DNA of 64,000 bases from Candidatus Microgenomates bacterium (GTDB taxonomy: Bacteria > Patescibacteriota > Microgenomatia > UBA8517 > JACQJR01): positions 96,551-160,550 of the forward strand of contig JACQJR010000002.1 of assembly GCA_016204995.1 (NCBI GenBank), given 5' to 3'. The stretch's first letter is position 1; each line of letters starts with the position of its first letter. The position numbers and the translations under genes were made by a program. Shown piece by piece: positions 7,525 through 63,395 of the stretch. The notes under the pieces are model-generated. The model was not told the origin of the DNA. It made no database searches and worked only from the letters and a program-made list of their open reading frames with translations.

Positions 7525-7594
7525 AAATTTAGGTTATTAGGTTACTGGGCTATTAGGCTCTTGGGCCTAATACTAATTATATCATAGTTGAAAA

Positions 7595-26509: not shown

Positions 26510-26632
26510 CGCCGATACTTACTTTTCGCCTTAGTAAATTCTTACTGCGGCTCAAGGAGCGTTATCATGGCGGGTGCGGGGCAACTATGAAACTAGTTGC
26601 CCCTTGACGACATTTTGGCTTTAGTCTATAAC
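26510..26632 (+). promoter_or_regulatory. Element X copy 1: structured leader repeat ending in a sigma70-like promoter (TTGACG-N17-TATAAC) upstream of pyrG
   Basis: Hairpin AGTAA-attc-TTACT, conserved GCGGCTCAAGGAG..ATGGCGGGT, hairpin GGGGCAACT..AGTTGCCCC, then -35 at 26604 and -10 at 26627. Near-identical inverted copy at 55595-55722. Confidence 0.5.
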
Positions 26633-31573: not shown

Positions 31574-33637
31574 ATGCCACAAAAACTAATTGCCTTTTTC
31601 TACTACGCTTTGTTTTTCTTTACTCCGCTTTTATTTAATAAAGCCAACTCCGAACTTTTTGAACTGCCAAAAATGTACTTTGTCTGGGTAATTACTATTA
31701 TCATTGTCAGCTTGTGGCTAGTTAGAATAATCGCCGAAAAGCGAGTTATTTTTCAGCGAACATTTTTAGATATTCCTCTAATTTTATATCTAATATTTCA
31801 ATTAATTAGCACCTACTTTTCAATTGATCAATACACTTCTATTTGGGGATATTATTCCAGACTTAACGGCGGATTGATATCAACTATTAGCTATTTACTA
31901 CTTTATTGGGCCTATATTTCAAATTTAACCACCCAAAATACCCTATCTGCTCTTAAATTCCTGTTAATTTCTGGTTTACTAGTAGCTTTATGGGGGATTC
32001 CTAGTCATTTTGGCTATGACCCGAATTGTGTTCTTTTTGGCTACAACCTAACCACCAATTGCTGGAGCACCCAATTTGTACCAACTGAACGCATCTTTTC
32101 CACTTTGGGTCAACCAAATTGGCTGGCCAACTGGCTCGTAGCGCTCATGCCATTAACTTGGGCCATGTTTTTCACCTCTAAGATCAAAAATCTAAAATCT
32201 AAAATCTTTTATCTATATTTAAGTCTTATCCTAATAATAGCTATCATCTTCACCAGAAGTTCCTCCGGTTTTCTGGGATTAGTGGTAGCATTAGTAGTTT
32301 TTACCACCCCGCAAATTCTACACTTATTCAAGAAGGGGAAATTTCTTGTTTGGTTAACAATCTTACCCATTTTAACTATGTCTATATTTTTTGTGCAAAA
32401 ATTACCCAAAGTTGTCAATGGACTAAAATCTTGTACAGAAATTTTGACTTCTGAAGGCGAGTCGCACATTAATAGTAATATTACTCCTTCTAGTGACATC
32501 CGCTGTATTGTCTGGAAGGGTGCTTTTGATATATGGCGGCATTATCCATTAATTGGTAGTGGGCCGGAAACTTTTGCTTATTCCTATTACCAATTCCGTC
32601 CGGCTATCCATAACTTAACCAGCGAATGGGACTTACTTTATAATAAAGCCCATAATGAGTATCTTAATTTCTTGGCTAATAGTGGCCTAGCTGGTTTAAC
32701 AACATATTTAATTTTAATTATTATGGCTTTTTGGCTATTAGGCTCCTCGGCTCTTAGGAAAAACCCAACAGCCCTGCCTGCGCAGGCAGGCCAACGGCCT
32801 AATGCCCTAATAGCCTGGGGTTTACTCGCTGGTTTTGCCAGCCTTCTCGTCACCAACTTTTTCGGCTTTTCCGTCGTTGCCACTCAACTGCAATTTTTCT
32901 TATATCCGGCAATGGTGATAGGGCCACTGGGCTCTTGGGACGCTAGGCAATCGGACAATCAAAGGCCTAACGCCCTTCAAGTCATTTTAATTTTTCTAGT
33001 ATTATTTATTACCATCTTTCTGTTAGTTAAAATCTATCATTATTACCAGGCCGATCTTCATTACAGCCGGGCCCAAACTTTAGAAGATAATCAACAATAT
33101 GTGGATTCATTATCCGAAATTAGAAAAAGTCTCAACCTGCGACCAAATGAGCCATTATATAAAAACGAATTATCAGTTATTCTTTCATCGCTATCATTCT
33201 TAACTGCCAAAACCGATAGTGATCTTAGCGCCCAAATGACCAATATTGCTATCACATCTTCCGATCAAGCGCTAGCAACTTCGCCCTACAATCTTAATTT
33301 TCTCAAAAGTCGGGCCAGTATGTTTATTAAACTCTCCCAGCCGCAAGAGGCGATCAAAACCTTAGAATATGCCCAAAAACTCGTCCCTACCGAGCCCAAG
33401 ATTGCTTATAATCTAGGTCTAACCTATATACAACTGGATCAAAATGATCAAGCCATTCAGGAGTTTAAAAAAGCTACTCAACTTCGCCCCTTATACCGCG
33501 ACGCCTGGTTAGCACTCGGACTGGCCCAGTGGCAAAAAGGTGATAAAACTACCGCCCGCCATACTTTAAATTACATTTTGCAAAATATTGACTCCCAAGA
33601 TAAAGAGGTTCTAGAACAGCTCAAAAAGTGGAAATAA
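31574..33637 (+). CDS. O-antigen ligase (Wzy_C)-like polytopic membrane protein with C-terminal TPR repeats
   Basis: Many TM helices, a large periplasmic loop, C-terminal TPR-like repeats. Contains the in-frame palindrome CCTGCCTGCGCAGGCAGG (LPAQAGQ) and 9-mer repeat inserts. Confidence 0.5.
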   Translation: MPQKLIAFFYYALFFFTPLLFNKANSELFELPKMYFVWVITIIIVSLWLVRIIAEKRVIFQRTFLDIPLILYLIFQLISTYFSIDQYTSIWGYYSRLNGGLISTISYLLLYWAYISNLTTQNTLSALKFLLISGLLVALWGIPSHFGYDPNCVLFGYNLTTNCWSTQFVPTERIFSTLGQPNWLANWLVALMPLTWAMFFTSKIKNLKSKIFYLYLSLILIIAIIFTRSSSGFLGLVVALVVFTTPQILHLFKKGKFLVWLTILPILTMSIFFVQKLPKVVNGLKSCTEILTSEGESHINSNITPSSDIRCIVWKGAFDIWRHYPLIGSGPETFAYSYYQFRPAIHNLTSEWDLLYNKAHNEYLNFLANSGLAGLTTYLILIIMAFWLLGSSALRKNPTALPAQAGQRPNALIAWGLLAGFASLLVTNFFGFSVVATQLQFFLYPAMVIGPLGSWDARQSDNQRPNALQVILIFLVLFITIFLLVKIYHYYQADLHYSRAQTLEDNQQYVDSLSEIRKSLNLRPNEPLYKNELSVILSSLSFLTAKTDSDLSAQMTNIAITSSDQALATSPYNLNFLKSRASMFIKLSQPQEAIKTLEYAQKLVPTEPKIAYNLGLTYIQLDQNDQAIQEFKKATQLRPLYRDAWLALGLAQWQKGDKTTARHTLNYILQNIDSQDKEVLEQLKKWK
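32772..32789. repeat. 18-nt perfect palindrome CCTGCCTGCGCAGGCAGG in-frame in the Wzy-like membrane protein
   Basis: Encodes ALPAQAGQ. Flanked by GGCCTAATGCCCTAATAGCC 9-mer repeats. Confidence 0.6.
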
Positions 33638-33843
33638 TGACAAAAACTTTCCGACCTGCGCTTCGCCGAAGACTCAGGCAAGGCGAGTCGCAAATAAAAT
33701 GTCAAGTCTAAATTAGCTTTTAGACTTAGTTGAATTGTCTTGGTCAAATTATACTACTAGAGGCTTAAGAAGCAAATTTTGCCAAGCCCGCCAAAAGCTA
33801 CGCATTTTTGCGGGTCCGCCATAATACGAAGTTTTAGGCGGAG

Positions 33844-33936
33844 AAAAGGCACCTTGGGGAGATATAAAAAATTTAAATCGCGTTTTGCGACAAATTTATA
33901 TATCACCTTACGGTGCCTTTAAGTATTCAGTTGTGG
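33844..33936 (+). repeat. Element Y copy A (structured repeat AAAAAGGCACC...AAATATCACC..GGTGCCTTT + TATTCAGTTGTGG)
   Basis: Outer stem GGCACC/GGTGCC encloses an internal AT-rich stem and a TCGC-gtttt-GCGA hairpin. About 85% identical to copy E at 58149. Confidence 0.6.
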
Positions 33937-33957
33937 AAAGGTTAGGAAATGGTAACC

Positions 33958-34341
33958 CTAGTTAATGTACGGCCCGAACAGGTCTTTGATTTCCGGAGGA
34001 AGCTCGCAATCGCGCCAGCTGATGATCTGAGGACCGTAAGCCCTATCATGTCCGCAAACAATCCTCTTAGCTCTGCATACTCCAGATTTTACTTCATCCG
34101 GATGACTCCGCCACGTGCGAATTTCCACGAAAACCTGGTCCTGCCACCTGACTCCTAGGTTATGACAAATGGCTCGGATGACACTTTCGGCGGCGTTGGT
34201 GGTATTGGGCGCCTTTCTGGGAGGTGTTAAACCAGTCAGGTAAATTTTATTACCCTCCCGGTAATATGCTGCCGTGCCTTTGCTGCCATGAGGACAGAGG
34301 TAATCTACCTCGGAAAGTTGCCGCAGCATTTGGCCGACCAT
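33958..34341 (-). CDS. N-acetylmuramoyl-L-alanine amidase-like (phage T7-lysozyme-like) fragment, GC-rich
   Basis: About 50% GC versus a ~38% background. Strong RBS GAGGAGG. C-terminal H..(8-9)..C spacing and SWRDCELP resemble the Amidase_2 zinc site, but the N-terminal His region is missing, so it is possibly truncated. Confidence 0.3.
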   Translation of the reverse strand: MVGQMLRQLSEVDYLCPHGSKGTAAYYREGNKIYLTGLTPPRKAPNTTNAAESVIRAICHNLGVRWQDQVFVEIRTWRSHPDEVKSGVCRAKRIVCGHDRAYGPQIISWRDCELPPEIKDLFGPYIN

Positions 34342-34583
34342 GGTTCCTCCTCGTTAGCCCACCAAAAGGGGCTAAAAAAATTTTGACCAGTTAATGTCGC
34401 CCCAGAGAAAGAGAACCGCAATCCCCACTACCGCCAGAAAAAACTCCTTCACCTGCCTTTTCCACAATCTGTTAAAGTGCGCTACTCTAAACAAAAAACA
34501 GGCTTGCCTCGCGCCTGCGTCTATTTATAGTGCTACTACAAGGTAATTGTATCAAAAGCAAAATCAAAAAACAATTTGGCAAA

Positions 34584-34638
34584 GAAAAAGGCACCCCCAA
34601 AATGATTTGCTAAAAGCAAAATCACCTCAAGGGTGCCT
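34584..34638 (+). repeat. Element Y copy B
   Basis: AAAAAGGCACC..TTTGCTaaaAGCAAA hairpin..AAAATCACC..GGTGCC. Lies 3' of minus-strand ORF 34693..35034. Confidence 0.5.
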
Positions 34639-34692
34639 AAATAAGTCCACCTGACGGGAAAAACGAGTCATGCGCGGCTCCTCCTTAGTTTT

Positions 34693-35034
34693 TCAACTCA
34701 ACTTCCGAAGCACCTCCAGTGGAACAGCCTCCTTGCTGCAAGGATACCAGTCAGCCACCCACGGGTATAGATCAAGCGGGGAGTATAACTCCAGGCTTAA
34801 CCTGTTTGCTGCCACTCGCTGTGGTGGTACCTGACCATAGCCAGGAGGAAAATCAACCTCAATAAAGGTTACTTCTCTCCAGTTGAGCTGGGCTACAGAG
34901 CAGATACCTAGGACAATACCCTCTTGGCTCTGGCCGTCACGATGACGAAAGAAAACCAGCTGGTCTGGCCAAATGGTGTACTTGACACCTGCCAGTGGAT
35001 CCCGCTCCGGTAGCGCACGACGACTCCTGGTCAT
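34693..35034 (-). CDS. hypothetical protein (GC-rich, likely foreign)
   Basis: 113-aa ORF with RBS GGAGGG. Higher GC than the host genes. Confidence 0.4.
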   Translation of the reverse strand: MTRSRRALPERDPLAGVKYTIWPDQLVFFRHRDGQSQEGIVLGICSVAQLNWREVTFIEVDFPPGYGQVPPQRVAANRLSLELYSPLDLYPWVADWYPCSKEAVPLEVLRKLS

Positions 35035-35181
35035 TTTTCCCTCCTTCAGGAAAAACTAAAATACTTTTCCGCCAAGTTAAAGAGCAAACAGACCCAAAAA
35101 GGCTTGCTTTGTTGCCTTCGGCTGTTCTTAATTCCTAACCCATAGTTTATCAAACTATAAGCCAAAAAGCAAATTGGCCAA

Positions 35182-35240
35182 GAAAAAGCGCCGGTTGGAT
35201 CAATCTTGCAGATTATGCAAAATATCACCTTCCGGCGCTG
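35182..35240 (+). repeat. Element Y copy G (compensatory variant GCGCCGG/CCGGCGC)
   Basis: Same architecture, but the outer stem changes from GGCACC/GGTGCC to GCGCCGG/CCGGCGC. Inner TTGCA-gatta-TGCAA hairpin and the AAAATATCACC motif are conserved. Confidence 0.5.
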
Positions 35241-35424
35241 TATCCTTGAGACTTAATTGTACGGTGGTAAAACGAGATGCTTCTCCCCCTCCAGTTTCCA
35301 TAGTATTTTGTGGTTCCTCTGGAGATTTGCTAATAGCAAAACCACCAACCAGTTAAGTCTAACTGCCATAACTCCTCCTTTTAATGTTTTCTGATTACCA
35401 CTTGAACTGCGGCCCAGAGAGGTG

Positions 35425-35610
35425 TTACCACCACGACAAAATACTGCCTAGCATAAACAAACCAGTTACCATGAGTAACCCGGACACGATCGCCCCAAGG
35501 GGCCCCCAATTTCGAAGAGCATCGACCAAAAGAAGACCTCCCAGTACCACTAAAACAATAGCCATAGCGGTTACTCCAAAGGGATTCATTTTCTGTTCCT
35601 TCCTGTACAA
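35425..35610 (-). CDS. small membrane protein (GC-rich)
   Basis: 61 aa with 2 TM helices. RBS AGGAAGG. Confidence 0.4.
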   Translation of the reverse strand: MYRKEQKMNPFGVTAMAIVLVVLGGLLLVDALRNWGPLGAIVSGLLMVTGLFMLGSILSWW

Positions 35611-35639
35611 CTAATGTTAAGGTACCGCCCTCCGTAACT

Positions 35640-35700
35640 TAGCTTTCACCTTACCTACTATTCGTAGCGCGACTCAAGCTGCGTTTGCTGACGGGCTATG
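35640..35700 (+). repeat. Element X copy 4 (degenerate) upstream of the DUF3800 gene
   Basis: CTAC-tattc-GTAG hairpin followed by GCGCGACTCAAGCTGCG. Aligns with the X consensus, but the hairpin arms are swapped. Confidence 0.35.
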
Positions 35701-35841
35701 CTTGTTTTAGACCCAAAGATAGATCGGCTTTTGACCTCCTTTAAACCTAAATTATGCTTAATTAGTATTGTACCACTTAACTATGAGATAAGCAAATTTG
35801 AAGTTATTGCAATAAGAGAATAAACGACAGTAAAATTAAAC

Positions 35842-36456
35842 ATGAAATTTGTTATTATTGATGAAAGTGGACGTTTATTTGACCCCAATGATAGATTTCT
35901 AATATTTGCAGCAGTTGTCACTGATACACTTGTTAACCTTGATAAAATCATACCTTCTGTTAAGAAAACACTACCCAGAAAGATAAAAATTGCAGAAATT
36001 AAATTCTCTAAAACTGGAGATAGAACCAGATTGAAAATACTTAAAGAAATTCACAGCAGGAAACTAAAACTATTTATTCTGGTAATTGATAAGGAAGGAC
36101 GAAAAATTAAAGATACTCCTGAAAATTATTCACTGTTAATAGCTACTCTGCTGAAGAAAATTATGAAGCGATACTCTACCACTTCACACATTTTAATAGA
36201 TAAACATTTCACTTGGGTGACTCAAAGAGAGAAATTCAATAAAAATATCCAGAAAATTTTGGCCCGTTCCTTATTTATTGAACATCTTGATAGCCAACAA
36301 AATACCATTGTTTCTTTGCCTGATTTCGTAGCAGGCGCAATCCGTGTTAGTTATACTAAAAACCAAAAATATTTCGCAGAAATAATAAATGATTTAATTG
36401 AAGAACAAATAGTTACAACCTGGAGGAAAATTAAACAAAAAATGGTAAAAGCTTAA
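35842..36456 (+). CDS. DUF3800-family protein
   Basis: N-terminal IIDESG motif and C-terminal SLPDFVAGAIR (DUF3800 'QLADFVAG' signature). AT-rich. Confidence 0.55.
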   Translation: MKFVIIDESGRLFDPNDRFLIFAAVVTDTLVNLDKIIPSVKKTLPRKIKIAEIKFSKTGDRTRLKILKEIHSRKLKLFILVIDKEGRKIKDTPENYSLLIATLLKKIMKRYSTTSHILIDKHFTWVTQREKFNKNIQKILARSLFIEHLDSQQNTIVSLPDFVAGAIRVSYTKNQKYFAEIINDLIEEQIVTTWRKIKQKMVKA

Positions 36457-36550
36457 AGGAGTCCTGAAAAACAGGCGTCCTGCTTTTACCTTAAATATAA
36501 TATACCATTTGTCAATAAGATTTGCAAGTAGGAAAAGCAAATTGGCCAAG

Positions 36551-36620
36551 AAAAAAGGCACCTTGGGGTAGATAAATTAGAGAATAAGTTATCTGTTCTC
36601 GGTTTTCAGTGTTCAGAATT
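36551..36620 (+). repeat. Element Y copy C (partial/degenerate)
   Basis: AAGCAAATTGGCCAAGAAAAAAGGCACCTTGGGGTAGAT 5' part matches copies A and E. The 3' half is degenerate (TTCAGTGTTCAG). Confidence 0.4.
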
Positions 36621-36655
36621 AGGTTTATCAGTAATCAGTTTACCAGTCAGTTATA

Positions 36656-37030
36656 CTAACTAAACTTTTTCCAAGTAGAGTGAAGCTTATTTAGCCTCCG
36701 GGAAAGTACCTTATATCTATCAATTAAGTCATCACAATCCTCTACTTTAATCCGAGTGAATGTTTTAGCTACGATTTTAATCTCCCGCAGATGGGTAATA
36801 ACTTCATCGGAAGAGCCAATGGCCATGGAAAGGAAGCGACAAAATTCGCGTGGAGAAGTTTTCTTACCGAATCCTTCGGCAATTTGAGGTGCAATCTTTT
36901 CCGCGGCTTCATTTAACTGATATCTCAATCTTTTGTAGATCGGTGGTAAGAGATTTGTTAAACTATAAACTGGATCAAGTAATTCTAAAGATAAATTGTA
37001 AACTTCCAAGTCTGTTACATCCTTAATCAT
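36656..37030 (-). CDS. four-helix-bundle protein (TIGR02436 / 23S rRNA intervening-sequence protein family)
   Basis: LEVYNLSLEL..LRYQLNEAAEKIAPQIAEGFGKKTSPREFCRFLSMAIGSSDEV matches the family pattern (QL.RAA.SI..NIAEG..R.S..EF..FL.IA.GS..E). 65 nt downstream of the ATPase, same strand. Confidence 0.65.
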   Translation of the reverse strand: MIKDVTDLEVYNLSLELLDPVYSLTNLLPPIYKRLRYQLNEAAEKIAPQIAEGFGKKTSPREFCRFLSMAIGSSDEVITHLREIKIVAKTFTRIKVEDCDDLIDRYKVLSRRLNKLHSTWKKFS

Positions 37031-37095
37031 ACTGATAAACAGAAAAACTGGTAAACTATTATCTGATAACTGACACCCGAAAACCGATCACTGAC

Positions 37096-39261
37096 TCATT
37101 CCTTTACCTTCCGGCCATAGCGTTCTCGAGATAAACGTTTGATCTTATCTTTATTCTCATTTTTCAGGCTCGGCAAGGGCAAAGTGTTGGCTGGGAAAGG
37201 CGAAGAGGTCATATTATCAATTGACAGCCGGGCAATAATTTCATATTTACCCAAAGCCACTAAATCATTTTCCGTATATAATTCGCCAAATTCTTTAGTC
37301 AAAATCCGGGCATCCGTCGCCCCTACCACGAATGATAAAAGCGTGCCGGCATTGCCAAAAATAGCCTTCTGAATCCCCTCTTCCAGTTGGCCAATATACT
37401 GATTGGCTAGGGTGAGCGACAGCCGATATTTGCGCGCTTCGGATAAGATTTTAATAAAGGAGCTTGTGGCAAAATTTTGAAATTCATCCACATAGAGGAA
37501 AAAATCCCGCCGTTCTTCTTCTTGAGTAAATGAACGGTTCATAGCGGCCAGCTGTAGTTGAGTAATAATCATCGCCCCCAGCAAAGAAGCATTATCCTCG
37601 CCCAATTTGCCCTGCGATAAGTTCAAAATTAAAATTTTACCTTCGTTCATAATCTGCTCAAGGTCAATCGTAGACTTGGGATTACCGACAATATTTCTGA
37701 TCATCTTGGAAGAAACGAACTGGCCAACCTTATTTTGAATTGGCGAAATGGCTTCAGTACGAAGGTTATCAGACATTCTTTCAAATTCCTTTTGCCAGAA
37801 GTTTTTCAAAACCGGGTCCTGCAAACGATCCACCACCCGCTCCCGGAAATTCCGGTCATTAAGCAAATTTAAAATATCCACTAAAGTACTACCTTCTACT
37901 TCCAAAAGGGTCAGAATGACATTGCGCAAAATATATTCCAGCCGTGGCCCCCAGCTCTCCCGATACAATTTGTAAAAAATGGAGATAATGCCCGAGGCCA
38001 CCAAATCTTTATGCTGGCGATTTTTAATTTCTAAAACGTTTAGAGAAAAAGGCCTTTCACTGTCAAAAGGTTCCAGATAAACTACGTCTGACACCCGCCG
38101 GGCCGGAATATAATCTAGAATGACCTCGGAGAGATCACCGTGCGGGTCAATAATGCCCACCCCTCGGCCCTTTCTAATATCATCAATCGCCATATTGGCA
38201 ATTAAAGTAGATTTGCCGGTGCCGGTTTTGCCGACAATATAGACGTGGCGGCGGCGATCAATTGTTTTGATACCAAAAATAGTTTCCTGATTTCTAAAGT
38301 TAGTCTTGGCAAAAAAGTTAACATCCTGCTTTTGCTCATCAGTCATAGCACTGGCTGCCGGCAAATTCTGCGGTGGCTCACCCAGTAAAGTCTTGCCCCA
38401 GGCAATATTTTTGATATTAGCCAGAAGTATGGCTGGCGGATGCCACAGACTGGCCAGTTCTTGGGCATTGAGAATTTGCTGCTGTCTTTCCAAGAAAGCC
38501 ACTTTTCGCTCGCGGATGCGAGCCAACAACCTGCCTTTGCGCAGTATTGGTCGCTTAAAAACTAACTGGTTGCCGCCGCCCAAAGAGAAACTGCCAAAAG
38601 TGCCGGCCAGATTTTGTAAAATTGGCTTGGTCGGCTGGCTATCAGAACCCGCCGCAATCCGAATCACCGCCCGCCCCCCTTGAAAAGAAGTTTTGCGTTC
38701 AATTAATATCCGCTGCGGATTTTGGCTGTAGCGATCAGAAGTCGGATCGTAAGTTTGGGTTTTAAGACTGGCCGTAGCTTTAGCTTGCCAGGGAAAAGTA
38801 GCCGGCGTCACAATAATTTGTACCATGATTTTAGTATCATTATCTTGCTTGGATAAAAAACCCAACAGTGAAGCCAAGGGGTCAACGTCGCGAAAATCCA
38901 AGTAGGTTTTAATCGGCAGATAGAAATAGGAGTTTAAGGCCAGCTCGCCTATTTCCAGATTTTTGGATTTCAAAACTTCAAAAAGGGGATCGGAGGTAGC
39001 GGCAATTTGAGCTTTGGGATAGGAAGAAGTGACTAAACTTTCCATGAAATTTTTGTGAGCATTAGTTGTAGTGACATAAAAATAAATAGTGGAATTAACG
39101 AGATAAATTTCAAAGCTAAAAGTTCCCTGCTTGGTAAACAGCCATTTCCAACCCGGCAAATACGGCCGCGATAAGACAGAGGCGAAGATTTGCGCGGCAC
39201 TTTCAGTAGGCGTCTCATCGTCTTTGGAAAGCTTAAGTTGAATATGGCTAAGCTGCGGCAT
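37096..39261 (-). CDS. FtsK/HerA/VirD4(T4CP)-superfamily P-loop ATPase, cytoplasmic (DUF87/type-IV-DNA-transfer-like)
   Basis: Walker A (GKTGTGKST), IIDPHGD motif, Walker B (FFLYVDEFQNF), arginine-finger/sensor region (ARKYRLSLTLANQ). About 330-aa N-terminal domain of unknown function. No TM segments. Confidence 0.55.
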   Translation of the reverse strand: MPQLSHIQLKLSKDDETPTESAAQIFASVLSRPYLPGWKWLFTKQGTFSFEIYLVNSTIYFYVTTTNAHKNFMESLVTSSYPKAQIAATSDPLFEVLKSKNLEIGELALNSYFYLPIKTYLDFRDVDPLASLLGFLSKQDNDTKIMVQIIVTPATFPWQAKATASLKTQTYDPTSDRYSQNPQRILIERKTSFQGGRAVIRIAAGSDSQPTKPILQNLAGTFGSFSLGGGNQLVFKRPILRKGRLLARIRERKVAFLERQQQILNAQELASLWHPPAILLANIKNIAWGKTLLGEPPQNLPAASAMTDEQKQDVNFFAKTNFRNQETIFGIKTIDRRRHVYIVGKTGTGKSTLIANMAIDDIRKGRGVGIIDPHGDLSEVILDYIPARRVSDVVYLEPFDSERPFSLNVLEIKNRQHKDLVASGIISIFYKLYRESWGPRLEYILRNVILTLLEVEGSTLVDILNLLNDRNFRERVVDRLQDPVLKNFWQKEFERMSDNLRTEAISPIQNKVGQFVSSKMIRNIVGNPKSTIDLEQIMNEGKILILNLSQGKLGEDNASLLGAMIITQLQLAAMNRSFTQEEERRDFFLYVDEFQNFATSSFIKILSEARKYRLSLTLANQYIGQLEEGIQKAIFGNAGTLLSFVVGATDARILTKEFGELYTENDLVALGKYEIIARLSIDNMTSSPFPANTLPLPSLKNENKDKIKRLSRERYGRKVKE

Positions 39262-39329
39262 TAACTACATTATATTACATTTTTAACAAGCTTGTCTCGC
39301 CGAAGTCCGGCGTAGACGGACGAAGGCGG

Positions 39330-39441
39330 AAAAAAAGGCACCCCGCGGGAAATATCTTGCGGTTAAGCAAAAATATCACCTTTGAGGTGCCTTGATACTA
39401 TTTTGAGCTTGCGAAAAACAAGCTTCGCTTATTCAGTTGTG
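39330..39441 (+). repeat. Element Y copy D
   Basis: AAAAAAAGGCACC...CTTGC-ggtta-GCAA...AAAATATCACC-tttga-GGTGCCTT, then an extra AGCTTG/CAAGCT hairpin, then TATTCAGTTGTG. Lies 3' of minus ORF 39429..39647. Confidence 0.5.
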
Positions 39442-40365: not shown

Positions 40366-40959
40366 ATGAGTGTCCAGAAAATTTTGACAGTGCAGAATCC
40401 GGTTTTGCGGACATCGGCTAAAAAAGTCACCCAATTTGATAAACGAATTGAACGGTTAATCACTGATTTAATTGATACTTTAAAAGTGCAAAAAGACCCC
40501 ATCGGAGTCGGTCTTGCTGCTCCTCAAATTGGCAAGTCCATAAGACTTTTTGTCGCTAAATTGGGTAAGGATATTATTCCCTTTATAAATCCGGAAATTA
40601 CTTGGAAATCTGAAAACACTAACGACCCAAAACCAACTAAACGTTTTCCTAAGAGCCTAGAAGCCCAAGAGCCCATAAGCCCCGAATACATCATGGAAGG
40701 ATGTCTGTCTCTTCCCCATTTTTACGGCCCAGTCCAGCGGGCCCACCAAGTCACAGTTCGTTATCAGACTCCAAAATTGGAAATTGGAAATTGGAAATTG
40801 GAAATTACGACGAAGTCGTTTAGTGGGCTGGCCGCGCAAATTATTCAACACGAAACAGACCATTTAAACGGCACATTATTTATTGATAATTTACTTCATC
40901 AAAAGCGTAAACTTTATAAATGGGAAGGCAAAGAATGGGAAGAAGTGGAATTACCGTAG
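40366..40959 (+). CDS. def: peptide deformylase
   Basis: Motifs GVGLAAPQIG, EGCLS, HETDHLNG. Contains in-frame repeat-derived inserts (KSLEAQEPISP, and a (GGAAATT)n tract encoding KLEIGNWKLEI). Confidence 0.85.
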   Translation: MSVQKILTVQNPVLRTSAKKVTQFDKRIERLITDLIDTLKVQKDPIGVGLAAPQIGKSIRLFVAKLGKDIIPFINPEITWKSENTNDPKPTKRFPKSLEAQEPISPEYIMEGCLSLPHFYGPVQRAHQVTVRYQTPKLEIGNWKLEITTKSFSGLAAQIIQHETDHLNGTLFIDNLLHQKRKLYKWEGKEWEEVELP

Positions 40960-41004
40960 GCAATTCAGGGCGTTAGGACATTAGGTATTTAGGCTCTTAG
41001 GCAT

Positions 41005-41367
41005 ATGAGCGATTTTACCAAATTAAAAATATGGCAGAAATCTCACGAATTATCATTGGAGGTTTATCATCTTACTGCAAAACTACCTAAAGAAGAAACT
41101 TTCGGCTTAATGTCACAGTTACGCCGAGCAGCAGTATCAGTAGAATCTAATATTGCCGAGGGCGAATCAAGATTTAGTAGTAAGGATAAACTAAATTTCT
41201 TTATCCAAAGTCGCGCATCTATCGGCGAGGTCCAGACACAATTACTTTTAGTAGCTGATTTATATCAGCAATTAAAGAGTAAAGCTTTACAATTAAAAGA
41301 AGAATATACTAATCTTTATAAACAAATAAATAGTCTTGTTTCTTATAGAAGAAAAAACGATTTATGA
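41005..41367 (+). CDS. four-helix-bundle protein (23S rRNA IVS protein family)
   Basis: KLKIWQKSHELSLEVYHLT..QLRRAAVSVESNIAEGESRFS family pattern. Inserted between def and fmt. Confidence 0.65.
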   Translation: MSDFTKLKIWQKSHELSLEVYHLTAKLPKEETFGLMSQLRRAAVSVESNIAEGESRFSSKDKLNFFIQSRASIGEVQTQLLLVADLYQQLKSKALQLKEEYTNLYKQINSLVSYRRKNDL

Positions 41368-42431
41368 ACCCTAACAGCCCAAGAGCCCTGCCTGCGCAGG
41401 CAGGCCAACAGCCCAAGAGCCCTCCTCTCGTTTTTTTCAGCACACCAGACTATGTGCTGCCAGTATTGGAACAGCTAAAAAATGCCGGTTATGAAATTGC
41501 AGCTATTGTTTCCCAGCCACCCAAACCAGTTGGCAGGAAACAAATTTTAACACCAACTCCTACTGCTGTTTGGGCTAGCCAAAATAACATCCCCAATCTT
41601 GATGCTTCACCTAAAACTTTAATTGAACCTTTACAAAAAATTGGCGCGACCATTGCCATTCTGGCTTCCTACGGCCGGATTATTCCGCAGGCAATTATTG
41701 ATGTTTTTCCACAAGGCATCTTAAATATTCACCCCTCACTTTTACCAAAATTTCGCGGTGCTTTACCGGTAGAAGGAGCATTGGTAGCAGGCGAAAGCGA
41801 AACCGGCGTGACTATTATCAAATTGGATGCCGAAATGGATCATGGTCCCATTGTTTCTCAAATTACCGAAAAAATTAATAAGGATGACACTAAAATTACT
41901 TTAAGAAAAAGATTATTTGAAAAAGGGGCCGCTGAATTAATTAAAGTCTTACCAGACTACTTAGCTGGCAAAATCGCACTGCAAGAACAAGATCACACTC
42001 AAGCTACTTATACCACTTTGATGAAAAAAGAATACGGCTTTATCCCGCCGCAATATTTGGAAGCTGCATTTAAAGGTGAGACTTTAGAGGAAAAATGGCC
42101 CATCCCATTCATAAAAGACTTTTCCCTAGTACCTAGTGCCTATTCCCTTCACAATTTTATCCGTGCTATTAACCCCTGGCCCGGAGCATACACTGAAGTA
42201 ATACTACCAATAAATACCAATACTACCAATAAGCAAAGCTTGGCCCTTCGGGCTAATTACCAATCAACTAAAAAAAGATTAAAAATTCTGAAATCTCACT
42301 TAGAAAACCTAGTAGCCCAAGAGCCTAATGCCCCAACAGTCCACTTAGTGCCTGACTTGGTCCAATTAGAAGGCAAAAATCCCGTTTCTTGGCAACAATT
42401 TAAACAAGGCTACCCCAACTTCACTTTCTAA
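41364..42431 (+). CDS. fmt: methionyl-tRNA formyltransferase
   Basis: Formyltransferase core (NIHPSLLPKFRGALPV) and a C-terminal Fmt domain. The N-terminal extension contains the CCTGCCTGCGCAGGCAGG palindrome (ALPAQAGQ). ATGA overlap with the upstream gene. Confidence 0.85.
   Translation: MNPNSPRALPAQAGQQPKSPPLVFFSTPDYVLPVLEQLKNAGYEIAAIVSQPPKPVGRKQILTPTPTAVWASQNNIPNLDASPKTLIEPLQKIGATIAILASYGRIIPQAIIDVFPQGILNIHPSLLPKFRGALPVEGALVAGESETGVTIIKLDAEMDHGPIVSQITEKINKDDTKITLRKRLFEKGAAELIKVLPDYLAGKIALQEQDHTQATYTTLMKKEYGFIPPQYLEAAFKGETLEEKWPIPFIKDFSLVPSAYSLHNFIRAINPWPGAYTEVILPINTNTTNKQSLALRANYQSTKKRLKILKSHLENLVAQEPNAPTVHLVPDLVQLEGKNPVSWQQFKQGYPNFTF
41387..41404. repeat. 18-nt perfect palindrome CCTGCCTGCGCAGGCAGG in-frame at the fmt N-terminus
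   Basis: Encodes ALPAQAGQ. Flanked by CAGCCCAAGAGCCC repeats. Confidence 0.6.
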
Positions 42432-48159: not shown

Positions 48160-48720
48160 ATGAAGATTAAAGATTTTCGTGAGCGACCGCTCCTATTCAT
48201 TGATTTAGAAATGTCCGGCCTTAATCCTTTGATCCATGAAATTTTAGAAGTTGGGGTATTAGTAGTAGATGGCAAGACTTTGGGAATAAAAGCCGAGTAT
48301 GAAGCCAAAGTCAAACCAGAACATATTGAAACTGCCGATCCGCTGGCCCTGCGTATCAATGGCTATAAAACAGAAAACTGGAAAGACGCTAAACCATTAA
48401 AAAAAATTTTAGAAGATTTAAATAAACTGGCCCCCGAGGGCATGATTGTTGGTTTTAACGTCGTCTTTGACTCCATGTTTTTAGATTTGGGATTTCGTAA
48501 ATTTAATATCAAGCCCAACTTTGATTACCATATTTTAGATGTCTTAAGTTTGGCCTGGGCTTATGTTTTACCTGACAGTAACGTCCACGAAGTAAAACTA
48601 TCAACTCTTTGTAAACATTTTGGCATTGAGCGAAAAGAAAAACACCGGGCGTTGGCAGATATTAAGGCGACATACGAGCTTTTTACAAAGCTCATGGGCA
48701 TTAGGCAATTGGGTAATTAG
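48160..48720 (+). CDS. DEDDh 3'-5' exonuclease (DnaQ/epsilon-like)
   Basis: Exo I (LFIDLEMSGLNP..EILEVG), Exo II, Exo III (HRALADIKATYELF). Confidence 0.75.
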   Translation: MKIKDFRERPLLFIDLEMSGLNPLIHEILEVGVLVVDGKTLGIKAEYEAKVKPEHIETADPLALRINGYKTENWKDAKPLKKILEDLNKLAPEGMIVGFNVVFDSMFLDLGFRKFNIKPNFDYHILDVLSLAWAYVLPDSNVHEVKLSTLCKHFGIERKEKHRALADIKATYELFTKLMGIRQLGN

Positions 48721-48982
48721 GCTATTAGGTTTTCTGACCTAGGAGCCAAAGAGCCTAACGCCCTAAAAGCCTATTACTCCAGCTTTCTACAAATTCTTTC
48801 CGATCGCAAATAAAACAAATAAAATGTCAAGTTTCAGGTGTCCTACCTAAACCACCTCTAAGGTGATTAATCCTTGACACCTATTTAACCAAAGAAAAAA
48901 GCGCTCTTGGTATAAAACCCATCATTAAAAAATGATGTCCGATTACTCGGCAAGAGCGCTTACTAATTTAGTTGCGAGATTG

Positions 48983-55219: not shown

Positions 55220-55246
55220 GGTTCGGCAAGCTCACCACAGTACATT

Positions 55247-55270
55247 AAAAAAGCGCTCCACCGAGCGCTC
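55247..55270 (-). terminator. rho-independent terminator/attenuator in the rplJ leader
   Basis: Minus-strand AGCGCTC-GGTG-GAGCGCT hairpin followed by TTTTTT, about 28 nt upstream of the rplJ ATG. Confidence 0.45.
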
Positions 55271-55445
55271 AAAGATCTAAATTCTAATATCTAAAATCTA
55301 GATGAGGTGCCTCGGTGAGATTTATTACGTTCATGTAACTGAACGTAACTCACTGTCTTAAGCTTTCATTTATTTTAACACACAAAGGCCCCTGTTGCAA
55401 GTTGCACACAAGGGCCGCCGAGAAGTCAAGTCCGGCGAAGCCGGG

Positions 55446-55594: not shown

Positions 55595-55722
55595 GGACAC
55601 AGTATAAAAATGAGCCTCTCGTCTGTCAAGGGGCAACTGTGCAAGCAGTTGTCCCGCACCCGCCATGATAACGCTCCTTGAGCCGCAGTAAGAATTTACT
55701 AAGGCGAAAAGTAAGTATCGGC
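55595..55722 (-). promoter_or_regulatory. Element X copy 2 (inverted) with sigma70-like promoter (TTGACA-N17-TATACT) reading toward rplJ
   Basis: The reverse complement is near-identical to copy 1 over ~100 nt, including the GGGGCAACT..AGTTGCCCC hairpin and the CTCAAGGAGCGTTATCATGGCGGGTGCGGG segment. Confidence 0.5.
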
Positions 55723-56064: not shown

Positions 56065-56145
56065 AAAGGCTCCTTGGCTCTTAGGCTACTAGGCTCTTTG
56101 GTAAAATTCTTCCTAATGACCTAATAGCCCAATGCCCCAAAAGCC
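56065..56145. repeat. tandem degenerate 9-11-mer repeats (GGCTCTTAGGC / GCCTAATAGCC family)
   Basis: GGCTCCTTGGCTCTTAGGCTACTAGGCTCTTTGG...CCTAATGACCTAATAGCCCAATGCCCCAAAAGCC. The same family occurs at 7528-7575, 32735-32765, 40963-41002, 44822-44892, 48698-48775 and in-frame in def, fmt and the Wzy-like gene. Confidence 0.5.
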
Positions 56146-56148
56146 TCA

Positions 56149-57429
56149 TTATGCCACTCTTTCCTTCAAAGCTTCATATGACTTCACTAAATAGTCTTCT
56201 GCCTTTTTAGCTAATACTTCTTTTCTCTTACCGGTGGCTAAATCCGCTTGTTTTTGCTGCTCTTGGGCAAGCACTCGCAAATAAGCAATTTTGTTGGCTT
56301 GAAAAATGGGAATACGGAACAGTTCGGCATAAAGCTCGCGGGTGACATTTTGCAATTCCACATTCTCTGATCTCTTACTATCACTTCTTTTCAAATATTC
56401 AATTTCCAGACTGGCTACCAAACGCGGCTCAAAAGCCAGTTTGACATTTTTGCGCATTAAACTATAAAAGCTAGTTAAAATTCTTTTTGTCCCTTGCCAA
56501 TTTCCTTCGGTCTCACCGGTCGTAATGGCTTTAACAAACATCTCTGCCGCTTCCTTAGCAATTAATAAAGAGGTACCAAATTGAGCTTTAAGGTAACTCA
56601 CAAAAGCCTTCTTAAAAGCGCCTTCCTCTTTAAACTTCCTGGCTCGCCACCAATCCAGTTCCAGTTTAGCAATTAGTTTCGGCTCAAAATCAAATTTGCG
56701 CACACTATCGCCTGCCCCAAAACGGCGGCGGCGGCGGGAATAATCAAGCAAAGCTTCGCGAAACTTGGCCCGGTCAAAATCCGGCAGTAAACATTCATCC
56801 CACCAAATTTCGGCATAATTTGTTTGCCAGGGCATAAAACCGGATAATCTTTCTTCACCGGAAGTTCTGATTAATAAATCAATGTAGGGATAGGGTTGGT
56901 CATTAGTGTCCAAATATGAGGCAAATAATTTTTCGTCTATGGCCTCGACTGGAATTTTATCATCCACGATTTTGCGAGTGACCCGGACAATTTCATCATG
57001 CCCTCCATAATCAATGGCTAAATTAAAAACGTAAGATTTATTATTTCTGGTATCATTTTCTGCTTGCCGAAGTTTTCTAGCCAAACTTTCCGGCAACCTA
57101 TCTTTACGGCCCAAATGAATAATGCGCACATCATCTTTTTTAGCTTCACTGATATGTTGATCAAGAGCTTTTTCAATAATTTTTAAAATGCCGCCGGCTT
57201 CTTTTTCACCCCTTGACCAATTCTCGGTAGAAAAAACCCAGACGGTAAAAGTATGGATGCCAAAATCTCGGCAGGCGCGGGCTATTTCGCCAATCGCTTC
57301 TCCGCCTTGTTCATGGCCTTTATGGATTGGTAAACCGCGAGCCCGCGCCCAACGACGGTTGCCGTCGCAAATTAAAGCGACGTGGTGAGGTACTACAATA
57401 TCTGAAGGCAAGGACAAGTCTGGCGGCAT
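56149..57429 (-). CDS. uppS: undecaprenyl-diphosphate synthase fused to a ~185-aa C-terminal repeat domain
   Basis: N-terminal cis-prenyltransferase core (HVALICDGNRRWA, FSTENWSR). C-terminal extension with two FEP(K/R)L(I/V)A.LE(L/I) repeats and no TM. Confidence 0.8.
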   Translation of the reverse strand: MPPDLSLPSDIVVPHHVALICDGNRRWARARGLPIHKGHEQGGEAIGEIARACRDFGIHTFTVWVFSTENWSRGEKEAGGILKIIEKALDQHISEAKKDDVRIIHLGRKDRLPESLARKLRQAENDTRNNKSYVFNLAIDYGGHDEIVRVTRKIVDDKIPVEAIDEKLFASYLDTNDQPYPYIDLLIRTSGEERLSGFMPWQTNYAEIWWDECLLPDFDRAKFREALLDYSRRRRRFGAGDSVRKFDFEPKLIAKLELDWWRARKFKEEGAFKKAFVSYLKAQFGTSLLIAKEAAEMFVKAITTGETEGNWQGTKRILTSFYSLMRKNVKLAFEPRLVASLEIEYLKRSDSKRSENVELQNVTRELYAELFRIPIFQANKIAYLRVLAQEQQKQADLATGKRKEVLAKKAEDYLVKSYEALKERVA

Positions 57430-57561
57430 TTTCCTATTGTAGACTATCGGTCAACCTCTGTCAAAAATTGAATCAATCTTTTAGATCCATTTGGATTGTT
57501 CTGTGAAGATTATATCACCAGAAGTTTAAAAAGCAAATCAAATTTTTAATTTTCCATTTAT

Positions 57562-57595
57562 TGACACTTTGTTTCCGATCGGAAAGAAAGTGTCA
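57562..57595 (+). promoter_or_regulatory. 34-nt near-perfect palindromic operator TGACACTTTGTTTCCGATCGGAAAGAAAGTGTCA
   Basis: One mismatch between the arms. Lies between the PaaX-like stop and the uppS promoter region (extended -10 TGATATAAT on the minus strand). A half-site CGATCGGAAAGAAAATGTCA recurs at 58127-58146. Confidence 0.5.
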
Positions 57596-58111
57596 TCACT
57601 CCCTCTCTGCTACTAAGACTTGCACCCACTCCTCAACTTCCAATTCCTTCACAAATTCTCTTAATGGCTTTTCAATATTTCTTTTAGTCGCCCAAACACT
57701 CTTTTGCCAGCAGACAAAACCCCAAGTTTTTAGTCGCCATCTTAATATATTTCGCACTCTCTTTTTATCCTCTGGTATATCAAAAATAACTACTCGCCAT
57801 CTACCATCCCAGTTAGATTTCTCATCCTTTAGAAAACGAGTTAATTTTCTACCATCTTTTGTTAGTTTTAAAATGATTTTTTCTGCTCTCTTACTTTCTT
57901 GCGCTATTAAACCCCTTTGCCGCAATCTCCGAATGGCATGACTTAAGGCTGTATCGCTAATTGGTCGGGGGTAATTGCCATAAACATCATAAATCCATCT
58001 TCTTAAATCAACAGAAGAATTTACTACTAGTTCTCCACCCTCTACTGCTTTTTCTAAAACAAGTAATAGAAGATTGGGAATTGAAACTGTTTCCTTTTTA
58101 TTACTAGCCAC
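57596..58111 (-). CDS. PaaX-like winged-helix transcriptional regulator
   Basis: N-terminal wHTH and C-terminal WDGRWRVVIFDIPE...FVCWQKSVW PaaX-family motif. Start moved to GTG 58111, because a TTGACA-N17-CATAAT promoter lies inside the longer ORF, so the transcript is probably leaderless. Confidence 0.5.
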   Translation of the reverse strand: MASNKKETVSIPNLLLLVLEKAVEGGELVVNSSVDLRRWIYDVYGNYPRPISDTALSHAIRRLRQRGLIAQESKRAEKIILKLTKDGRKLTRFLKDEKSNWDGRWRVVIFDIPEDKKRVRNILRWRLKTWGFVCWQKSVWATKRNIEKPLREFVKELEVEEWVQVLVAERE

Positions 58112-58118
58112 TTGACAA

Positions 58119-58147
58119 ATTATGTGCGATCGGAAAGAAAATGTCAA
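58119..58147 (-). promoter_or_regulatory. sigma70-like promoter (TTGACA-N17-CATAAT) of the PaaX-like gene, overlapped by an operator half-site
   Basis: The -35 is embedded in the CGATCGGAAAGAAAATGTCA half-site, which suggests autoregulation. Confidence 0.4.
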
Positions 58148-58148
58148 G

Positions 58149-58250
58149 AAAAAAGGCACCTTGGGGTAGATATAAAAAATTTAAATCGCGGTTATGTGAC
58201 CAATTTATATATCACCTTTAGGTGCCTTTAAGAACATATTCAGTTGTGGG
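58149..58250 (+). repeat. Element Y copy E
   Basis: Near-identical to copy A. Lies 3' of minus-strand gene 58269..58667. Confidence 0.6.
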
Positions 58251-58268
58251 AAATTTGGGTATTGGTTA

Positions 58269-58667
58269 TTACCGCCAGCGGTTATATCTCCATCGAGGAT
58301 CATACACCCTCAAAAGGGAGGCTACGTAAAAGGTCAATATCCAACCACCGAGACCAGTTGCTACTTGTAGCCAGCTGTTTTTGACTTGCAGAGCCGCAAA
58401 GGTAGATAGTAAAAACATCGCCATGACTATTATAAGCTTTCCTACATTCATCCACTCCCCTTTGCTTCCAACTGGAACCTGCAAATCCTGTTTCTTAAAG
58501 CTAATCCTCTTCTGGCAATCTTCGCAGATGGCGATGTGAACAGTTTGATCTGCTAGATCAAAACGCCGGGCCAGGTCAATGGCAACAGCCGAAGATTCCA
58601 GCAATGCTCGGGCACGCTCCTCCACTGCCTCATCTGCCAGATGATAAACAACAGTCCTATCCGTCAT
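58269..58667 (-). CDS. membrane protein with HxxxCxxC (ZAS-like) motif, GC-rich
   Basis: HIAICEDC fits the zinc anti-sigma H-x3-C-x2-C pattern. Two C-terminal TM helices. RBS AAAGGAG. GC-rich relative to its neighbours. Confidence 0.35.
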   Translation of the reverse strand: MTDRTVVYHLADEAVEERARALLESSAVAIDLARRFDLADQTVHIAICEDCQKRISFKKQDLQVPVGSKGEWMNVGKLIIVMAMFLLSTFAALQVKNSWLQVATGLGGWILTFYVASLLRVYDPRWRYNRWR

Positions 58668-58869
58668 GACTTTCTCCTTTGCCCTGACTTTGCTCTGACA
58701 TCCATTGAGCTACAGACCGGCGATCGCCGCACTGCAAACAGACAATGTCCACGCCCAAACCGTCATCCTCTTCAAAAAGATCGCCGCCGCATTTCTTACA
58801 TTCCCTTAACGACCGTAATCGTTGATCACTATTTTCATTATCTAGATTTCGCCCAAGCACTTCAGACAT
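58657..58869 (-). CDS. zinc-ribbon small protein, GC-rich
   Basis: CKKCGG...CLQCGD two CxxC pairs. Start set at the internal Met with a strong AGGAGG. Confidence 0.4.
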   Translation of the reverse strand: MSEVLGRNLDNENSDQRLRSLRECKKCGGDLFEEDDGLGVDIVCLQCGDRRSVAQWMSEQSQGKGESHDG

Positions 58870-59050
58870 GTCGCCCTCCTTAATTTCCACTAACTGAATG
58901 TTAACGTGCGTTTTGAGTCACAAAGACTAGATACGCGCAAAATGTATCTACCTATGACACAACAAGGCAATTATATACCCATCCAACCTTATTTCCAATA
59001 AATGGGTATATACGAGTACTTTTAGTTAAAAACTAAAATAAGACGATATA

Positions 59051-60091
59051 CTACTTCTCGCGCTCCACAATATAATCAGCCAAACTTTCTAAAATTTCCT
59101 GATAATTTTTATCGCTTGTTAAATGAGGAATTTGTTGTTTACTTTGCGCAACCAATTCTTGGGCCATCTTGACCGCGTAATCCAGAGCAGCTGTTTCCCT
59201 GATGATATCCCGCACTTCTTCCACTTCTTCTAATGTAATGTTCTCATTCCCCCACATTTTTTGTAAAAAATTTTTTTGTTTGGCATTACCCTTCTTTAAT
59301 GCCTCAAGATACAATAAAGTATTTTTGCCTTCTTTAATATCCGAATCAACTGATTTACCTAAAGTTTTTTCGTTGCCAAAAATTCCTAAAATGTCATCCT
59401 GAATTTGATAAGCAATTCCTAACGGCAGAGCAAATTTATCAATTATTTTTAAACTATTTGCGTGAGCCCCGGCGGCCAACGCCCCGTATGTCAGCGGTCC
59501 GATAAAAGTATAATAAGCAGTTTTTAATTTATTAACAGTTAAAATTTGTTGTTCGCTAATCTGTGTTTGGTAAGCCATTTCTACATCTAATGCTTCTCCA
59601 TAAACTGTATTAAGAACTATTTGTAAAATTTCCTGCACTACTTTCTGTAAAATTAGTGGCGGCAAATCTGCGGACAGACAAAGTTTAATCGCCTCATAAA
59701 GTCCAAAGTCACCAGCCAAAATGGCCATACTTTCGCCATAATGAGCAGTTTTATTTTGGGCATATTTAACATGAATGGTAGGTTTGCCATGTCTCATATC
59801 TCCTTTATCAATAATATCGTCATGAATTAATAATGATCCATGAATCATTTCTACCGCCGCGGCAATGGGTAAAATTTTTACTCTATCTTTGCCGCCCCAT
59901 ATTTCATAACCCAATTTGACAAGCCCCGCCCTTAATCTCTTGCCGCCGCCTAAAAAGGCAGTAAAATCTGAGATTAAATCGGCTGCAATTGGAGCTTCTT
60001 TCTTTGCCTGTCCCTGGCATTTTCCCAAATATGAAGCCAGGTATTCATTAACTTGACCCGCCCAATCTGAAAAATATGGCTTGAAGTGCAT
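59051..60091 (-). CDS. polyprenyl diphosphate synthase (trans-IPPS, IspA/IspB family)
   Basis: FARM LIHDDIID and SARM IQDDILG motifs. Confidence 0.85.
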   Translation of the reverse strand: MHFKPYFSDWAGQVNEYLASYLGKCQGQAKKEAPIAADLISDFTAFLGGGKRLRAGLVKLGYEIWGGKDRVKILPIAAAVEMIHGSLLIHDDIIDKGDMRHGKPTIHVKYAQNKTAHYGESMAILAGDFGLYEAIKLCLSADLPPLILQKVVQEILQIVLNTVYGEALDVEMAYQTQISEQQILTVNKLKTAYYTFIGPLTYGALAAGAHANSLKIIDKFALPLGIAYQIQDDILGIFGNEKTLGKSVDSDIKEGKNTLLYLEALKKGNAKQKNFLQKMWGNENITLEEVEEVRDIIRETAALDYAVKMAQELVAQSKQQIPHLTSDKNYQEILESLADYIVEREK

Positions 60092-63300: not shown

Positions 63301-63395
63301 AAAAAGGCACCGTCCAGAGATAAAATTGCTTATAAAGCAAAATATCACCTTTTGGTGCCTTTGCGACCCATATTCGGTTGTGTATTCAGTTGTAA
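63301..63395 (+). repeat. Element Y copy F
   Basis: AAAAAAGGCACC..TTGCTT-ata-AAGCAA..AAAATATCACC-tttt-GGTGCCTTT, then ATATTCGGTTGTG and TATTCAGTTGT tails. A GC-rich minus-strand micro-ORF follows. Confidence 0.5.

Follow-up and report, generated by a model that had tools for sequence, protein, structure and literature searches.

A short gene for a PaaX-related DNA-binding protein, located on contig JACQJR010000002.1 of a Candidatus Microgenomates bacterium from the candidate phyla radiation (CPR), is bracketed by two copies of a 34-nucleotide (nt) palindrome, one built into the promoter of the gene and the other placed directly on its stop codon. This layout, in which a regulator gene is enclosed by its own candidate operator, recurs across the family to which the gene belongs and is statistically robust. 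Sequence alone shows both sites, the promoter embedded in one of them, the lack of a leader and the family-wide arrangement with arms particular to each locus. The analysis covered a stretch of 64 kb (the window), and all coordinates are positions within it unless a relative is named.

The regulator gene (57596-58111, minus strand) was delimited from its open reading frame (ORF) and translation, and encodes 171 amino acids (aa) between a GTG start codon (58111..58109) and a TGA stop codon (57598..57596). The NCBI gene model (HY404_04265, Candidatus Microgenomates) begins at the same GTG, and an alternative longer ORF starting at 58159 would begin within a terminator-like element. The palindrome that a preliminary description of this DNA had placed after the stop codon is real and lies at 57562-57595 exactly as quoted (TGACACTTTGTTTCCGATCGGAAAGAAAGTGTCA, no strand assigned); this site, the putative terminal operator (O_T), has its first base right after the stop codon and arms that are complementary at 16 of 17 positions, with no match in 100 shuffles. 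The half-site that the same description had seen over the -35 box of the regulator does overlap that box, but it belongs to a complete second palindrome, the putative promoter operator O_P (TGACAAATTATGTGCGATCGGAAAGAAAATGTCA, 58113-58146, no strand assigned), which spans the regulator promoter from -35 to -1 and ends 1 nt short of the GTG. The promoter (58119-58147, minus strand) was borne out as proposed, with TTGACA (58147..58142), a 17-nt spacer and CATAAT (58124..58119) scoring 11/12 in a consensus scan. Only 7 nt separate CATAAT from the GTG, predicting an mRNA that is leaderless or has a 1-nt leader, and no Shine-Dalgarno sequence was found upstream of the GTG. A search for the palindrome throughout the genome had also been suggested; run as a pattern scan of the 64 kb, it returned O_P and O_T alone, as TGACA-N9-CGATCG-N9-TGTCA matched twice in the window and never in shuffled sequence.

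Homologues of the regulator are confined to Microgenomates-type metagenome-assembled genomes, with more than 578 coding stretches in species-representative genomes and 3-5 paralogues in single sub-megabase genomes; the complete Daviesbacteria genome CP066688.1 has at least 3. About 4000 clusters (50% identity) make up a wider short-form group at E<=1e-10. In the first four loci inspected (L001-L004) a palindrome runs up to the start codon of every gene and another lies on the stop codon, and all neighbours are different. Our survey of the layout in 87 gene copies, in which the palindrome centre was scored as CG[AG][TC]CG, found both the upstream and the stop-codon palindrome in 65 loci, with variant centres in several others, against a background rate of 5.6% in random 180-nt stretches. 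Members with only 30-31% identity and other centres (GCGGCCGC, GCTATAGC) are bracketed likewise. Of the 102 strong palindromes in 675 kb, 97 lie at the ends of regulator genes, compared with 0-2 in shuffles. O_P and O_T of the same locus share 28 of 38 bases and sites of different loci 18 of 38, suggesting concerted evolution of the two sets of arms at each locus and divergence from one paralogue to another.

The placement of both sites relative to the gene is equally regular. In 47 of the 65 loci the start codon (ATG in 57) lies 17-21 nt from the palindrome centre, the outer arm containing TTGACA and the inner arm a hexamer resembling a -10 box, a geometry that leaves no room for a leader; in a subgroup of loci the promoter is offset by about one helical turn and still abuts the start codon. 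The downstream palindrome has its modal centre 15 nt past the last base of the stop codon, its outer arm is formed by the stop codon itself (TGA, TAG or TAA, then ACA), and in some loci the final codons of the regulator are encoded by the palindrome arm. A conserved operator on a stop codon is unusual.

Two relatives carry additional palindromes. L047 has three copies of one locus-specific palindrome (3061-3099, with its centre at 3080; 3916-3954; and ~4484-4522 in that locus), and the extra copy is found some 100 nt before a 221-aa ORF, itself located upstream of the regulator, so that the putative operator marks a second gene too and family members would be able to have extra targets. In L038, a dprA-like gene follows a family member, and its ATG is directly adjoined by a palindrome (4855-4893) that contains a TTGACA...TATAAT promoter; DprA was confirmed only as two of 63 downstream neighbours. 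The arms of this palindrome differ from the sites of the adjacent member, and it is possibly the target of another paralogue or a chance occurrence.

The regulator has the architecture of the first part of PaaX. Its C-terminal portion (residues 98-168) matches PF20803 (PaaX_M, the Cas2-like central domain; E 4.8e-19, 68.7 bits against a cut-off of 24), which is present in 29 of 29 homologues, and the other Pfam matches are weak ones to a winged helix (HxlR) and to Cas2. The Pfam model for the PaaX N-terminal domain gave no match at E<0.01 and PaaX_C gave none, the protein ending at residue 171, just past the central domain. An AlphaFold model built with 23 homologues (pLDDT 84, the predicted local distance difference test score) has a winged helix followed by a beta-alpha-beta-beta-alpha-beta domain, and its top full-length PDB matches in Foldseek are E. 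coli PaaX (8A39, E 1.6e-5), Rv0674 (3KFW) and a PaaX-like protein from Jannaschia (3L09), over 170-178 columns; the profile of the regulator family matches residues 57-172 of 8A39. The invariant Asp after the first strand of the Cas2-like domain is D111, in VVIFDIPE. Judged by these matches and the model, the regulator appears to correspond to PaaX reduced to its first two domains, lacking the C-terminal one that binds the effector. Its earlier designation as a PaaX-like regulator holds in the sense of a PaaX-related DNA-binding protein, but not of a true PaaX, since the match to the PaaX equivalog TIGR02277 reaches 33.7 bits against a cut-off of 264.55, covers positions 32-148 of 279 (the N-terminal half of the model), and the effector domain is missing. 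Other identities were considered and rejected. Cas2 scores are below threshold (24.0 against 24.5 for TIGR01573, 18.8 against 23.8 for PF09827), the domain is fused to a winged helix and no cas genes stand among the called neighbours of the inspected loci; PADLOC gave only weak Cas2 matches in place of a defence system; and a phage origin finds no relatives in 2.9 million viral contigs, the sole PHROG match being a generic winged-helix regulator.

Our data suggest that the cassette is probably a leaderless, self-repressing gene bracketed by its own operators, in which O_T is auxiliary and the downstream gene uppS is not a target. From the features above we infer that the protein binds both sites, that binding represses, and that O_T contributes to regulation. 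The regulator would act as a small dimeric DNA-binding protein, with a winged helix, a Cas2-like dimerization domain and no ligand-binding domain, and would recognize the 34-bp palindrome via its conserved CGATCG centre and the ACA/TGT blocks 13-15 bp to either side. O_P would be built into a strong promoter, its outer left arm serving as the -35 box and its right arm containing the -10 box, with the start codon coming after the latter arm; occupancy of O_P would then exclude RNA polymerase, so that the leaderless gene would repress itself. Autorepression at O_P is the best-supported step, and the autoregulation and leaderless transcription proposed earlier are both supported, the former by a palindromic candidate operator over the gene's own promoter and the latter by the spacing from the -10 box and the recurrence of this geometry in relatives. 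O_T, abutting the stop codon, would bind the same protein and is most likely an auxiliary operator, which could loop to O_P across the gene of about 540 bp, block elongating polymerase at the gene end, or both. Through either action the strong promoter of the cassette would not drive its neighbours, here uppS, which has a promoter of its own. Looping, a roadblock or insulation, and a role in recombination are all compatible with the data as functions of O_T.

Leaderless expression seems to be common in this host, because sigma-70-type promoters ending 4-8 nt before the start codon precede 13 of the 65 genes in the window (uppS included) and a Shine-Dalgarno-like motif precedes only 14 of the 65. 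Examples of such abutting promoters are at 57436-57464 (uppS) and at 59092-59126, upstream of the ATG of a polyprenyl synthase gene (60091..60089).

Several observations weigh against this interpretation of the cassette. The GTG start is atypical among relatives that mostly use ATG, and as a leaderless start GTG works poorly in E. coli but well in mycobacteria (PMC4633059). The distance between O_P and O_T (516-572 bp) gave no 10-11 bp signal of helical phasing, so that looping is neither supported nor excluded by it. Similarity between the sites of different loci tracks the Cas2-like domain, with a partial rank correlation of 0.35, and not the winged helix (0.03), and an attempt to assign specificity to a region of the protein by correlating pairwise protein identity with site identity was given up: the winged helix was not singled out and the Cas2-like domain correlated better; no sub-region of the protein stands out in this correlation, in which phylogeny is a confounder. 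Finally, a repressor that lacks a sensor domain and usually targets only itself has no obvious physiological purpose.

The 3' palindrome might instead act as RNA, as a hairpin at the 3' end of the mRNA that terminates transcription or stabilizes the message, its likeness to the promoter copy being secondary. We regard this as unlikely. On the transcribed strand O_T folds to a moderately stable -16.7 kcal/mol (z -2.9), and its location would suit such a hairpin, being the gene's 3' end and, in 21 loci, the space that separates two convergent genes. However, no U-tract follows the stop-codon palindrome, the T fraction there (0.30) is that of the background and the sequence is T-rich in only 2 of 65 loci, and terminator prediction called nothing in 57300-58400 and hence nothing between the regulator and uppS. 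Classification of O_T as an intrinsic terminator, which calls for a GC-rich stem and a U-tract after it, was rejected. Symmetry is near-complete at the palindrome centre and at positions 13-15 (0.72-0.98) and falls to 0.5-0.7 between them, with arm positions 4-12 pairing poorly, a pattern that fits a symmetric protein touching three patches on one DNA site and not a continuous stem. Mismatches compatible with G.U pairing are not enriched in the transcribed copy over the untranscribed promoter copy, and an RNA role would leave the match between the arms of O_T and that untranscribed copy of the same locus unexplained. An Rfam search of the regulator region found no matching family.

The surroundings of the cassette bear on two further alternatives. 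On the minus strand the gene order is a polyprenyl synthase gene (59051-60091; 5e-55), two small ORFs, a terminator-like element, the regulator and a UppS fusion gene. The fusion gene (56149-57429, minus strand) encodes 426 aa with a Prenyltransf domain at residues 20-238 (4e-70) and a C-terminal extension of about 190 aa without a Pfam domain; homologues of about 425 aa in total give 6059 matches at E<=1e-40 in Microgenomates/Patescibacteria. The two small ORFs (58269-58890, minus strand) have a GC content of 0.48-0.52 compared with 0.36-0.40, carry Shine-Dalgarno sequences and encode a membrane-like protein of 132 aa and a zinc-ribbon-like one of 70-77 aa. It had been proposed that the regulator is wedged between the UppS fusion and the polyprenyl synthase gene; its position is as described, with the small ORFs and the terminator-like element intervening before the latter. 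In the three relatives with the closest UppS fusions and available upstream sequence (66%, 62% and 58% identity; L085, L086 and L090) the gap between polyprenyl synthase and uppS is 42-60 nt and holds no regulator, and a fourth (L087) has no regulator and a NUDIX gene in the interval. The short gaps hold analogous promoters, the small ORFs are absent from the same interval, and the order downstream of uppS (MerR-like gene, L7/L12, L10) is conserved. Because the two genes are adjacent in relatives and the downstream order is conserved, the 1.6 kb at 57430-59050, comprising the two small ORFs, the terminator-like element and the regulator cassette, appears to be a lineage-specific insertion that splits a polyprenyl synthase-uppS pair. 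Neither the small ORFs nor the terminator-like element were linked to other family members in 84 loci; they belong to this genome's own repeats and not to the cassette.

The terminator-like element upstream of the regulator (58145-58232, minus strand) has its T-run end abutting the regulator -35 box, with 58140-58245 folding to -28.1 kcal/mol (z -4.69), and is predicted to shield the regulator promoter from transcription arriving from upstream. Other copies of this repeat family, likewise on the minus strand, are at 33838-33925, 34575-34640, 35170-35240, 36535-36580, 39327-39390, 48885-48965 and ~63323-63351. The outer stem covaries between copies (GGCACC.. or GCGCCGG..) and is followed inward by AAGGTGATAT, then by a T-run and a -35-like box; the family has no Rfam match, and most copies follow GC-rich small ORFs with a Shine-Dalgarno sequence.

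Two solo degenerate palindromes were found in the window, neither assigned a strand. One (33638-33704) consists of TGACAAAAACTTTCCGA, a 33-nt insert exactly at the centre and TCGCAAATAAAATGTCA, and begins right after the stop codon of a 687-aa gene, between convergent genes; the other (48787-48829) has a 9-nt duplication (AAATAAAAC) in one arm and the same right arm as the first, and is likewise flanked by convergent genes, with a terminator-like element upstream of it. These are the half-site variants noted before near 33690 and 48795, which do exist but are broken full palindromes between convergent genes and not operators at promoters. Upstream of each stands a copy of the same terminator-like element as the one before the regulator, the copy at 33.6 kb aligns with the regulator upstream region over about 130 nt, and a six-frame search of the window with hidden Markov models found no regulator gene or remnant near either. 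The solo palindromes appear to be paralogous remnants of a module of terminator element plus palindrome, and not a regulon.

The stretch at 33700-39400, which starts at the solo palindrome at 33638, is island-like and contains several GC-rich small ORFs with strong Shine-Dalgarno sequences. Read from translations alone, it also encodes a VirD4/TraD-like P-loop ATPase (37096-39261, minus strand), a DUF3800-like protein (35842-36456) and a four-helix-bundle '23S rRNA IVP'-like protein (36656-37030).

In a more speculative reading, which we consider quite unlikely, the unit would be a new kind of self-contained module: a repressor that has no sensor and whose conserved targets are confined to the two ends of its own gene, the module persisting and multiplying in Microgenomates (3-5 diverged copies per genome) as a cassette that silences and insulates itself and may be competent for recombination. 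O_T would then be a protein-dependent terminator that cuts the gene's own mRNA before the stop codon, and the broken solo palindromes would be excision scars.

The unit of palindrome, gene and palindrome could also be a present or former mobile or recombining cassette, with crossover at the CGATCG core and solo palindromes left behind on excision. The cassette lies on an insertion that splits an otherwise conserved gene pair, paralogues within one genome occupy diverse contexts, both solo palindromes of the window are broken at or near the centre with no gene remnant, and tRNA genes adjoin the cassette in L001 and L004. Against this, orthologue groups retain their neighbours (seven loci with an M1 peptidase; L002 and L004 syntenic), paralogues are only 35-50% identical, indicating no recent spread, no recombinase is linked to the cassette, the 2.9 million viral contigs hold no relatives, and the remaining parts of the insertion were not found with any further family member. 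How tightly promoter and stop codon fit into the arms speaks for a long co-adaptation as operators, and we consider mobility very unlikely.

The preliminary description had placed the 3' palindrome against uppS and suggested control of isoprenoid carrier-lipid synthesis. The uppS gene has its own promoter (57436-57464, minus strand; TTGACA-17-TACAAT, 11/12) 6 nt before its ATG (57429); the edge of O_T is 97 nt upstream of this promoter and its centre about 149 nt upstream of the ATG. Among 63 relatives the downstream neighbours are an M1 peptidase (7), a sortase (4), Fic (3), DprA, an M50 protease, ZIP and others, with no prenyltransferase, and 21 of 64 loci have a convergent gene next to the regulator; the position of the palindrome is tied to the stop codon of the regulator itself, irrespective of what follows. 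Given these diverse neighbours, the regulator-free relatives, the lineage-specific insertion and the separate uppS promoter, control of the carrier lipid is unsupported, and uppS is a neighbour, not a demonstrated target. That O_T is an operator through which the regulator controls uppS, and hence undecaprenyl-phosphate synthesis, is therefore highly unlikely, even though O_T lies between the two genes on the same strand with no predicted terminator, such that its occupancy could modulate read-through and a local effect on uppS is possible, and even though L047, with its third palindrome copy before another gene, indicates that such proteins can have additional targets.

Three further elements of the window were noted. 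Long imperfect hairpins with an 8-nt periodic unit (TTAGGCNA and its complement) occur at 7529-7569, 32714-32813, 40644-41013, 42302-42339, 48693-48769 and 56065-56143; they lie at gene 3' ends, often between convergent genes, and are possibly bidirectional terminators. A 76-nt inverted repeat (99% complementary; 26511-26586 and 55647-55722) has its two intergenic copies 29 kb apart, does not correspond to a tRNA and reaches the gathering score of no Rfam family. Upstream of L10-L7/L12, a ribosomal protein L10 leader (55238-55380, minus strand) scores 39.6 bits, just below the Rfam gathering score of 44.

CPR bacteria have very small genomes and few recognizable regulators, and to our knowledge no CPR regulator has been studied biochemically. 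The self-repressing cassette proposed here would offer a direct route to promoter structure and leaderless expression in this group, and each member of its family is a predicted protein-operator pair readable from sequence, together a ready set of orthogonal repressor/operator pairs. If O_T is a roadblock or a loop anchor, it would provide compact gene insulation in a setting poor in intrinsic terminators. Neither Cas2 nor PaaX is a suitable annotation for these proteins, and adjacency to uppS should not be taken as regulation of cell-envelope lipids.

Literature searches on PaaX found neither the short family nor the bracketing layout, and did not find PaaX and Cas2 together. As in PaaX (8A39) and the PaaX-like structures 3L09 and 3KFW, an N-terminal winged helix precedes a Cas2-like central domain. 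The E. coli protein recognizes TGATTC-N27-GAATCA and, by sterically excluding RNA polymerase, represses the promoter of its own gene (PMC9493321). The candidate operator described here likewise has short inverted repeats about three helical turns apart, TGACA-N24-TGTCA, overlapping -35 to -1. Unlike PaaX, which responds to phenylacetyl-CoA in E. coli and Pseudomonas and has 305-316 aa, the regulator has 171 aa and no C-terminal helical effector domain; there are no paa genes nearby, nor do paa enzymes appear in the 25 Pfam families that occur most often in the 63 downstream neighbours. The E. coli paaX gene has a PaaX-box-like site (10/12) upstream and none at its 3' end, where paaY overlaps, so it is not bracketed, and a stop-codon operator is therefore not a PaaX trait.

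Another parallel in promoter design is found in phage and restriction-modification repressors. Lambda cI, from pRM, and restriction-modification controller (C) proteins such as C.PvuII are expressed from leaderless transcripts, and their own palindromic operators overlap the promoter (lambda cI, PMC10491246; C.PvuII operators, PMC2647307). The regulator shares with them a promoter abutting the start codon, the lack of a Shine-Dalgarno sequence and an operator overlapping the promoter, here predicted from sequence. Their fold, an Xre/cI-type helix-turn-helix, is unrelated to that of the regulator, and the likeness is one of design and not of descent. Lambda also has a distant second operator set and uses looping. 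The second operators of cI and the C proteins, however, are not on the repressor stop codon, and both have defined downstream targets, the lysis-lysogeny genes and the endonuclease, respectively.

With Cas2, the CRISPR adaptation protein, the regulator shares the ferredoxin-like beta-alpha-beta-beta-alpha-beta domain, and some databases give these proteins that name. Cas2 is a stand-alone protein of about 90-100 aa, whereas here the domain is fused to a winged helix. No Cas families occur among the called neighbours of L001-L004, L091 and L092 or among the 25 most frequent families of the 63 neighbours, and a repeat search of the window found no CRISPR array, the palindrome being present as two intact and two broken solo copies.

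The nearest counterparts of O_T itself are auxiliary operators such as lac O2 in lacZ, gal OE/OI and the CodY and CcpA roadblocks, in which repression is reinforced by a second operator hundreds of bp downstream, through looping or a block to elongation. There the auxiliary site is found within or close to a gene that a sensor-bearing regulator targets, whereas here the candidate auxiliary site stands at the end of the regulator's own gene and is conserved in that position in hundreds of paralogues.

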